A stretch of 64,000 nt of DNA from Atopobium sp. GTDB lineage: Bacteria > Actinomycetota > Coriobacteriia > Coriobacteriales > Atopobiaceae. Numbering within the stretch: the first letter of the stretch is position 1; each line of letters opens with the position of its first letter. Below, piece after piece: positions 37,229 through 37,762 of the stretch. The translations under genes were made by a program, and so were the position numbers. Under the pieces are notes generated by a model that saw only the letters and a program-made list of their open reading frames with translations, was not told the DNA's origin and did no database searches. The DNA lies in contig JABZHN010000002.1 in NCBI GenBank assembly GCA_015258835.1, positions 16,624 through 80,623 on the forward strand, read 5' to 3'.

Positions 37229-37762
37229 ATGCACCAAAACCCGCAGAATGCAAGTAGCCAGCTAAACACCGGCTGCTCGGTAAACGCTCGCCCAAATTAC
37301 TCCCGCATGACAAAAATCCTCTTTGTGTGCCACGGAAATATTTGCAGGTCAACAATGGCGCAATACGTCATACAAGACCTTGTCGAGAAAAACGGTCTCG
37401 CAGACTCGTTTGTCATCGACTCAGCCGCAACCTCTACGGAGGAGATTGGCAATCCAGTTGATCCTCGTACGAGACGCAAGCTTCAGCAAGAGGGGATTCG
37501 TTGTGGCAATCATCGTGCGAGGCAGGTGACTCGTGCAGATTACGATAACTTTGATTACCTCATTGGAATGGACCACAATAACCTGCGCAACATGATGCGC
37601 ATACTAAAGGATGATTCGCTTGGAAAGGTTTCGTTGCTCCTTGATTGGACAGAGAAGCCTCGCGACATTGCGGATCCATGGTATTCAGGAAATTTTGATC
37701 TGACGTATGAGGATGTTACTGAGGGTTGCGAAGCATTGCTCAAGAAACTTTTGGCAAAGTAA
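37229..37762 (+). CDS. Low-molecular-weight protein tyrosine phosphatase (LMW-PTP / ArsC-like fold)
   Basis: P-loop CHGNICRS (C-X5-R-S) and a DPWY Asp-loop. The ATG at 37229 has AGGAGAAG upstream. The alternative start at 37307 (MTKILFVCHG…) would drop a 26-aa N-terminal tail. Confidence 0.8.
   Translation: MHQNPQNASSQLNTGCSVNARPNYSRMTKILFVCHGNICRSTMAQYVIQDLVEKNGLADSFVIDSAATSTEEIGNPVDPRTRRKLQQEGIRCGNHRARQVTRADYDNFDYLIGMDHNNLRNMMRILKDDSLGKVSLLLDWTEKPRDIADPWYSGNFDLTYEDVTEGCEALLKKLLAK

Follow-up and report, generated by a model that had tools for sequence, protein, structure and literature searches.

A predicted phosphotyrosine phosphatase gene as a probable old resident of the str/rplC operon boundary in the Atopobium group

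Introduction

[quoted passage not shown] In E. coli and Bacillus, a break between rpsJ and rplC would fall inside the S10 operon, and a first description made from the DNA letters on their own (the sequence-only reading) had accordingly presented ptp as inserted inside that operon. The window, that is, the whole stretch of DNA that was analysed, is 64,000 nucleotides long. Its local gene order is rpoB-rpoC-ArsR family-rpsL-rpsG-fusA-rpsJ, then ptp, then rplC-rplD-rplW-rplB and onwards to secY (Table 1). The answer that we develop below, and that we consider likely as a whole, is that ptp encodes an LMW-PTP of the phosphotyrosine type, has a weak promoter of its own and has long resided where the str operon ends and the rplC operon begins, so that it breaks no working operon.

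Table 1. Features of the rpsJ-ptp-rplC region, with positions counted in the window
Feature	Position	Strand	Evidence or remark
ArsR-family gene	32773-33156		4.07 kb upstream of ptp, beyond four genes
fusA (EF-G)	34332..36428	+	no tuf between fusA and rpsJ
rpsJ (S10)	36472..36780	+	Pfam Ribosomal_S10 2.1e-39; GTG start, GGAGG 7 nt upstream
Predicted intrinsic terminator after rpsJ	36802..36841	+	12-16 bp G+C-rich stem, then UUUUU
Second hairpin with U-run, terminator-like	36925..36966	+	dG -25.3, z -6.6
TGGCGAGAAACCC copy	36983..37001	-	19-nt inverted repeat with 37169-37187
MITE-like repeat of ~127 nt (25-nt terminal inverted repeats; 30-nt units inside)	37023..37149	.	3 copies in window
Putative ptp promoter core	37173..37192	+	conserved 13-mer, then G, then -10 box TAGAAT (37187-37192)
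Shine-Dalgarno AGGAG, 5 nt before ATG	37219..37223	+	kept in all loci
ptp ORF, 177 aa	37229-37762	+	ORF list; not a chance ORF
Ptp N-terminal 26-aa Q/N/S-rich tail, predicted disordered	37229..37306	+	pLDDT 45-70; dN/dS 0.44
LMW-PTP catalytic domain	37307..37762	+	Cys34, Arg40, Ser41, Ile38, Asp149; core dN/dS 0.053
A/T-rich variable spacer 3' of ptp	37763..37835	+	fold z -0.8; partly deleted in L001, L005
Non-coding block 5' of rplC, ~285 nt	37836..38120	+	nearly identical, most columns invariant, 11 loci
Probable rplC-operon promoter, TTGTTT-17-nt spacer-TAAAGT	37971..37999	+	cross-genus alignment
Three-helix RNA element of rplC leader	38052..38102	+	comparative structure
rplC (L3), first gene of long ribosomal protein unit through to secY	38121..38741	+	Pfam

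Results and Discussion

Conservation and age of the rpsJ-ptp-rplC arrangement

We compared the locus with its counterparts by an L3-based scan using one genome per GTDB species, which gave at least 80 loci that were screened by tblastn. Among the matches listed, nine GTDB species representatives (Atopobium sp. or Atopobiaceae) had an L3 protein 100% identical to that of the window. Each of the 17 comparison loci whose L3 matches that of the window exactly (L001-L017; nine belong to GTDB species representatives) showed the rpsJ-ptp-rplC order, and ptp occupied the gap in each of the nine identical-L3 species among the matches listed (84-96% identity). Two ptp homologues that were 83% and 76% identical lay on contigs showing the same order. 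The sequence-only reading had held that such an order in relatives would make the arrangement typical of the lineage rather than an insertion, and this is what was found. Its proposal stands in that ptp does lie physically between rpsJ and rplC; it does not stand as a notable insertion within an operon. The L3 proteins sampled were either identical to that of the window or no more than 90% identical, and the age of the arrangement is bounded by the sampled clade; ptp would have been present since before the sampled species of the Atopobium group diverged.

In the loci listed from Olsenella, Thermophilibacter, Tractidigestivibacter and Collinsella, tblastn detected no ptp. The rpsJ-rplC gap in these genera ranges from 222 to 3589 bp, or no rpsJ is present within 4 kb; indeed, many Collinsella and some Olsenella have rpsJ at a distance of over 4 kb from rplC. 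In Olsenella-like genomes the gap carries genes for ThrH and a His_Phos_1 protein; in Collinsella it contains those for a CDF transporter and a His_Phos_1 protein, and in Tractidigestivibacter one for a zinc-ribbon protein, and it is free of cargo in a few other genera. It measures about 111 bp in two deep Coriobacteriia loci and about 30 bp in Streptomyces.

Substitution rates, estimated by NG86, also bear on the age of ptp. Between the window and two sister genomes, dS was 0.54-0.91 for ptp and 0.71-0.73 for the ArsR-family gene, versus 0.00-0.18 for rpoC, fusA and 19 ribosomal protein genes. Such very low values in the ribosomal genes that flank ptp could be due in part to recombination rather than to codon bias, in which case the relative age of ptp would be harder to read. 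Over 55 pairs, the median dS of ptp was 0.76 and its dN/dS 0.08. Because its dS of 0.5-0.9 is like that of the ArsR gene, ptp appears to be an ordinary, long-resident and weakly expressed gene under purifying selection. A recent insertion is excluded by this dS together with the order seen in 17 of 17 identical-L3 loci. An ancestor of the Atopobium group could still have acquired ptp anciently, for example from Firmicutes.

A related possibility, which we judge very improbable, is that ptp is a recently mobilized cassette, moved by the MITE-like element or by recombination between inverted copies of a 13-mer, TGGCGAGAAACCC. The gene is bracketed by 21-nt inverted repeats (37172-37192 and 37836-37856), the MITE-like repeat lies just upstream of it, and the nearest homologues outside the group, which are 63-72% identical, stand in unrelated contexts: they adjoin an H+-pyrophosphatase gene, a PEPCK gene or a Tn916-like element, never rplC, and those that are named come from a Clostridia and a Lachnospiraceae MAG. 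However, the orthologous arrangement in all 17 loci and the dS of ptp indicate long residence, sister species with ptp lack the MITE-like element or differ in it, and the 13-mer is dispersed rather than specific to ptp, with 16 copies in 64 kb. Moreover, the composition of ptp is not anomalous (47.9% GC, compared with 46.4% for the ArsR gene and 51.3% for the window). The MITE-like element is independent of ptp.

A probable boundary between two transcription units

We then considered what the gap itself contains. In the classical S10 operon, rpsJ directly precedes rplC within one transcription unit; in the window, the two genes are separated by 1340 bp, which hold the predicted terminator, ptp, and a conserved putative promoter and leader. 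On the upstream side, rpsJ, for which an ATG at 36457 is an alternative start, is separated from fusA by a spacer of only 28-43 nt, and tuf is found at 18328-19539, behind a tRNA-Tyr/Thr/Met cluster. The hairpin after rpsJ folds with a dG of -29.5 kcal/mol (z -5.8) and is kept in 11 of 11 aligned loci, with compensatory changes in L005. Because it directly follows fusA and is succeeded by this strong predicted terminator, rpsJ is predicted to be the last gene of a str unit, rpsL-rpsG-fusA-rpsJ. The sequence from the rpsJ terminator to the ptp promoter is a patchwork whose make-up varies among sister species. The second hairpin sits in a part found in some species only, and the presence of the MITE-like element, whose other copies (17005-17131 and 24138-24264) are 83-88% identical, also varies. 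The terminator and the MITE-like element that had been noticed behind rpsJ at the outset were both confirmed, the former by its folding energy and the latter by its three copies.

On the downstream side, ptp and rplC are separated by 358 bp, of which the first ~230 bp have a GC content of 38-45%, versus 51% for the whole window, in good agreement with the A/T-rich spacer of about 360 bp described earlier. The conserved block that ends this spacer holds an inverted copy of the 13-mer (37843-37855), a second motif, GATACGCCCGG (37859-37869), and the rplC promoter and leader; in the 11 loci compared, the adjoining ptp coding sequence is far more diverged than this block. The predicted promoter aligns with TTGTGA-17-TAGACT in Olsenella, Thermophilibacter and Tractidigestivibacter, and resembles the rpsL promoter of the window, TTGACA-17-TAAAGT. 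The sole match of a consensus promoter scan, TTTACA-18-TATTAT at 37765-37794, was rejected as the rplC promoter, since this stretch is deleted in L001 and L005. The sequence-only reading had reasoned that expression from rplC onwards needs its own promoter or read-through; rplC is indeed predicted to have its own promoter, conserved across genera, and a leader of about 115 nt. The most economical reading of these predicted signals would be three transcription units, namely rpsL to rpsJ, ptp alone, and rplC onwards, with the transcription starts of ptp and rplC placed by their putative promoters.

Since the str unit would end after rpsJ and rplC would start with its own promoter, ptp appears to lie at an operon boundary, and in Coriobacteriales the break would mark where the str operon gives way to the rplC operon. 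We propose that in this order tuf moved elsewhere and rpsJ became the last gene of the str unit, and that ptp lies in the space left between these units, a place that other genes may fill in sister genera. Small insertions between the concatenated operons of the ribosomal supercluster, followed by further loss of synteny, have been described in Gammaproteobacteria and Bacilli (PMC8046335). The insertions into the rpoBC-str-S10-spc-alpha cluster reported there (bfd-bfr and tusDCB in Gammaproteobacteria, ilv-leu and nrdHEF in Bacilli) likewise consist of one or a few unrelated genes at an operon boundary; they are inherited within a clade whose relatives loosen synteny further, and the same holds for the ptp locus. 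The difference is that here the boundary is shifted by one gene: rpsJ stays with the str genes and the break falls between rpsJ and rplC.

Other lineages also keep S10 apart from the genes that follow it in E. coli. In cyanobacteria and plastids, rps10 stands at the end of the str cluster. In Archaea, uS10 lies outside the uL3-uL4-uL23 cluster (PMC10833476). The archaeal arrangement is like the present one in that S10 is separate from an L3-led cluster; here, however, S10 is joined to the elongation-factor unit, with no tuf between fusA and rpsJ, and the separation arose independently, within Actinomycetota. The position of ptp serves mainly as a caution: only by comparison with the E. coli/Bacillus template does a gene located between rpsJ and rplC suggest a broken operon. 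In Coriobacteriales the str-S10 boundary would be placed one gene further downstream, and would be a recurrent landing site for unrelated genes.

Identity of the phosphatase

The product of ptp matched the LMWPc profile of Pfam (PF01451) with E=1.4e-35 and 123 bits, against a cut-off of 23.2, and residues 30-171 aligned with positions 1-144 of the 144 in the profile. The P-loop CHGNICRS occupies residues 34-41 (C34-H-G-N-I-C39-R40-S41), and the general-acid loop near the C-terminus, D149-P150-W151-Y152, is invariant. In an alignment of 26 homologues, C34, G36, N37, I38, C39, R40, S41, D149 and P150 were unchanged. The profile, the P-loop C-X5-R-(S/T), the aspartate of the D-P-(Y/W) motif, the fold and the specificity residue all place Ptp among the LMW-PTPs, and the original assignment, made from the P-loop and the DP motif, was correct.

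The best solved relative of Ptp is B. subtilis YfkJ (4etm, E=1.3e-29), followed by a Campylobacter LMW-PTP and the ACP1 enzymes of mammals. The AlphaFold model, for which the 26 homologues were used, had a pLDDT of 89.9; its top Foldseek match was again 4etm, with an rmsd of 1.2 Å over Ptp residues 28-177 and a TM of 0.91 (target-normalised), and all of the top 50 matches were proteins of the LMW-PTP fold, with its Rossmann-like four-strand core. The fifth position of the P-loop is Ile38 in Ptp, and isoleucine at this position is a mark of phosphotyrosine enzymes rather than phosphoarginine enzymes (PMC8001253). A capsule-associated, Wzb-like identity was rejected: the Wzb equivalog model of NCBIfam gave 45 bits against a cut-off of 243, and neither BY-kinase nor polysaccharide export genes are neighbors of ptp. 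Indeed, within 10 kb on either side, no BY-kinase, capsule/polysaccharide export or ars gene was found, nor was a kinase partner or substrate visible.

We regard it as extremely unlikely that Ptp is an ArsC-type arsenate reductase working with the ArsR regulator, or a YwlE-type phosphoarginine phosphatase. These enzymes belong to a common fold superfamily, the NCBIfam ArsC models do match Ptp weakly, YwlE structures are among its distant matches (~1e-6), and an ArsR-family gene is present in the window. However, the thioredoxin-coupled ArsC models (TIGR02691 / pI258 type) scored only 18.4 bits against a cut-off of 174.3 and 17.9 against 215, and no ArsC structure was found among the structural relatives below E 1e-3. 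The redox relay of pI258 ArsC consists of Cys10, Cys82 and Cys89, that is, the P-loop cysteine and two others about 70-80 residues downstream. The cysteines of Ptp are at positions 16, 34, 39, 92 and 167 only, with none in 93-166, and so do not include a Cys82/Cys89-type pair. The placement between the Wzb/Ptp and ArsC clades that had been suggested as a check thus gave neither Wzb nor ArsC by score, and the cysteine triad is absent. As to the YwlE alternative, the fifth P-loop residue is the phosphotyrosine-type isoleucine and not threonine. The genomic context is not that of an ars operon either, since ribosomal genes flank ptp on both sides. It had been noted from the start that the ArsR gene lies about 4 kb upstream and is not adjacent, leaving linkage uncertain; at 4.07 kb this is accurate, and L001-L004 keep ptp with an acetyltransferase gene at the place of the ArsR gene. 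The two genes are unlinked.

Ptp is best described, as far as its sequence and model can tell, as a predicted orphan LMW-PTP of the YfkJ/ACP1 type, because of its closest relatives, the profile scores, the P-loop isoleucine, the lack of a cysteine relay and the lack of BY-kinase, capsule or ars neighbors. It shares with YfkJ (4ETM) the fold and 39% identity, and with YfkJ/ACP1-type enzymes in general the CxGNxCRS P-loop, the isoleucine at position 5, the DP general-acid loop and the location of the gene away from BY-kinase or capsule genes. It differs from them in three respects: a disordered Q/N/S-rich N-terminal tail of variable length (26-40 aa), the residue after the nucleophile, which is His and not Leu in Ptp as it is in Clostridia-like relatives, and the genomic site between rpsJ and rplC. 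The predicted activity would be the hydrolysis of phosphotyrosine through a phospho-enzyme intermediate on Cys34, with the phosphate held by Arg40 and Ser41 and Asp149 acting as the general acid, and a cellular substrate would presumably be a phosphotyrosine protein.

Start codon and expression of ptp

The sequence-only reading had placed the start of ptp at the ATG at 37229, with a good ribosome-binding site, which leaves a tail of 26 residues before M27-TKILF. Several lines of evidence support this choice. The upstream ATG and its AGGAG are common to all ptp orthologues, and the reading frame of the tail stays open through indels in all the species compared; its length differs between species by whole codons, as repeats of a Q/N/S-rich unit. 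Four species have Val instead of the inner Met27, encoded by GTG in three of them and by GTA in the fourth, and no purine-rich box precedes this codon. The tail evolves fast and the core is strongly constrained, with a dN/dS of 0.44 versus 0.053. The start proposed in the sequence-only reading, the ATG at 37229 and not the inner Met27, is therefore correct.

The putative promoter core of ptp is invariant or nearly so in 11 of 11 loci, and the sequence upstream of this core is variable; no recognizable or conserved -35 box was found before ptp, and the 13-mer within the core recurs genome-wide. We infer that the core may function as the ptp promoter, and ptp would most likely be transcribed from this weak promoter of its own, which has a -10 box only. 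Downstream of the gene, neither fold analysis nor a simple scan revealed a convincing terminator, so that some ptp transcripts probably run on into the rplC leader. It must be added that the simple scan also missed the clear rpsJ terminator, which makes its negatives weak.

Such read-through raises the question of whether ptp is tied to the ribosomal operon. A phosphatase might be kept upstream of rplC, the His_Phos_1 protein of Olsenella and Collinsella being replaced here by an unrelated LMW-PTP, which would be co-transcribed with rplC and act on the translation machinery. His_Phos_1 genes indeed lie 260-470 nt before rplC and on the same strand in at least four Olsenella-like and about 20 Collinsella loci, ptp is at the equivalent place here, and the search for terminators found none behind ptp, nor did the simple scan find any behind the His_Phos_1 genes. 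We nevertheless hold this scenario to be unlikely. None of the His_Phos_1 proteins reaches an NCBIfam equivalog cut-off, and their neighbor ThrH (292 bits, cut-off 133) is a metabolic enzyme; the position is taken by a zinc-ribbon protein in Tractidigestivibacter and is empty in several genera. Moreover, the negatives of the terminator scan count for little, as the rpsJ example makes plain, and a strong and conserved predicted promoter stands between this position and rplC. The more specific version, in which the place before the rplC leader is selected for a phosphatase and the LMW-PTP displaced His_Phos_1 and is transcribed into the new Coriobacteriia leader RNA, is in our view quite improbable. 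If a tie of this kind were true, the phosphatase level would be coupled to ribosomal protein synthesis, with the translation apparatus as the target of the enzyme. We therefore keep to the interpretation of ptp as a gene at the str/rplC boundary, expressed from its own weak promoter.

A conserved leader RNA before rplC

The comparison of the rplC upstream regions also revealed an RNA structure. Within the last ~70 nt before rplC, three helices are stacked: P1 pairs 38052-57 with 38097-102 (GUGGUC/GACCAC), P2 pairs 38061-64 with 38092-95 (UGGG/CCCA), and P3, a variable hairpin, pairs 38067-73 with 38079-85. They end just 5' of a conserved purine-rich stretch, the putative Shine-Dalgarno sequence. 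The element is present in every sampled Coriobacteriia locus, even in those with rpsJ as close as 111 nt upstream. In an alignment of 21 sequences, 94% of the cells of its 16 pairs were paired, versus 35-43% in slid controls; compensatory changes were found in 8 of the 16 pairs, and the covariation score was 0.31 versus 0.04-0.09. The structure appears in comparative analysis only, as the single-sequence fold of the leader was no better than that of shuffles (z -0.11). A covariance model gave exactly one match in each Coriobacteriia locus, in every case before rplC, whereas the Streptomyces, Firmicutes and Gastranaerophilales loci and the rest of the window gave no match; the matches are mostly training sequences or close relatives, and the specificity of the model is tested by them more than its reach. 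No Rfam 15 family matched near ptp or rplC (E<=1 over 32.5-42.5 kb; gathering score for the whole window), the only matches elsewhere in the window being an L10 leader and tRNAs. The segment 38052-38102 is a conserved, covarying ribosomal protein leader structure that is absent from Rfam.

In E. coli, the S10 leader is controlled by L4 (PMC3616713), and a survey of new ribosomal protein leaders listed only an L31 leader for Coriobacteria, together with an L4 leader before rplC in Archaeoglobi (PMC7247131). Like the E. coli leader and the Archaeoglobi L4 candidate, the element described here is a conserved 5' leader with a secondary structure, placed immediately before the gene that opens the L3/L4 operon, where it abuts the conserved purine-rich stretch, the putative Shine-Dalgarno sequence. 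It differs in having no sequence or structure match in Rfam 15 and in standing before rplC and not before rpsJ. By analogy, its ligand could be L4 or L3. The promoter and the covarying leader before rplC are a candidate for the regulation of the largest ribosomal protein operon of this order, and this side result may be of more practical value than the position of ptp.

Dispersed short motifs

Two short motifs recur in the window. With one mismatch allowed, the 16 copies of TGGCGAGAAACCC compare with 0.12 expected; most lie outside long ORFs, one group is arrayed in tandem ahead of the tRNA-tuf cluster, and three copies surround ptp. A role of this 13-mer as a promoter element was rejected, since no -10 box follows its other copies. 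The second motif, GATACGCCCGG, is found upstream of the tRNA cluster, rpsL and rplC and, with one mismatch, of rplB; it is invariant before rplC across genera and lies 8 to ~125 nt from the -10 box. Both motifs are over-represented and mark the intergenic regions of translation-gene operons.

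A candidate RNA leader and a probable promoter upstream of rplC

In the rplC leader, directly upstream of the gene, lies a three-helix RNA element whose structure is conserved through compensatory base changes. It was present in all Coriobacteriia sampled, and it occupies the equivalent position upstream of rplC in the comparison loci L018-L062, taken from other genomes. The element had no match in Rfam 15 and is a candidate new ribosomal-protein leader; by analogy, L4 or L3 is a possible ligand. The promoter-like sequence upstream of rplC resembles the rpsL promoter of the window (33308-33336), and its architecture is kept across Atopobiaceae genera, with TTGTGA-17-TAGACT at the aligned positions in L018-L033. 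The 11-mer GATACGCCCGG also occurs 5' of rplC in the Olsenella-like and Collinsella loci. Its sequence is invariant across genera and its distance to the −10 box is variable; the leaders of L030 and L032 contain the 11-mer in reverse complement.

Features of the window and of the comparison loci
Feature	Position	Remarks
Promoter-like TTGTTT-17-TAAAGT	37971-37999	upstream of rplC
rplC leader	about 38006-38120	
Three-helix RNA element	38052-38102	
GATACGCCCGG	17808, 33284, 37859, 39760	upstream of tRNA-tuf cluster, rpsL, rplC and rplB, respectively
TGGCGAGAAACCC, exact copies	6564, 9400, 17649, 21549, 23906, 24313, 33207, 36985, 37173, 37843, 55210	
Tandem array, TGGCGAGAAACCC type	17649-17804	degenerate ~24-nt units
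MITE-like, first family	17005-17131, 24138-24264, 37023-37149	terminal inverted repeats
MITE-like, second, related family	17206-17307, 23980-24081	terminal inverted repeats
tRNA-Tyr/Thr/Met cluster, then tuf	17465-19967	tufB-type unit
His_Phos_1 gene, Olsenella-like	about 2945-3740	L018, L019, L021, L033
His_Phos_1 gene, Collinsella	about 2915-3680	L035-L058

Cargo and divergence of the cluster

In the Olsenella-like and Collinsella genomes, a His_Phos_1 family gene, preceded by ThrH or a CDF transporter, is found just 5' of the rplC leader, and this slot is probably the older cargo of the rpsJ-rplC gap. When positions 33400-46500 of the window were compared with two sister genomes (L092 and L093), dS was 0.00-0.18 for the ribosomal protein genes, fusA and rpoC, and reached 0.72 for the ArsR gene and 0.5-0.9 for ptp. 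The synonymous divergence of the translation genes and rpoC is thus 5 to 50 times below that of these two embedded non-translation genes. Such low values could result either from extreme codon constraint or from recombination homogenising the cluster. The str operon of the window is without tuf, and as a consequence fusA adjoins rpsJ. Antisense to fusA and rpsG, a 904-codon open frame (33789-36503, minus strand) was rejected as a gene, being a shadow ORF arising from codon bias.

Dispersed repeats

The 13-mer TGGCGAGAAACCC is strongly over-represented in the window, with 16 copies, five of them carrying one mismatch, versus 0.12 expected. The copies occur in both orientations, most of them intergenic; the motif may be a REP-like element, or it may be bound by a protein. 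Both MITE-like families consist of ~100-130-nt intergenic elements beside highly expressed operons, and sister species differ in their presence.
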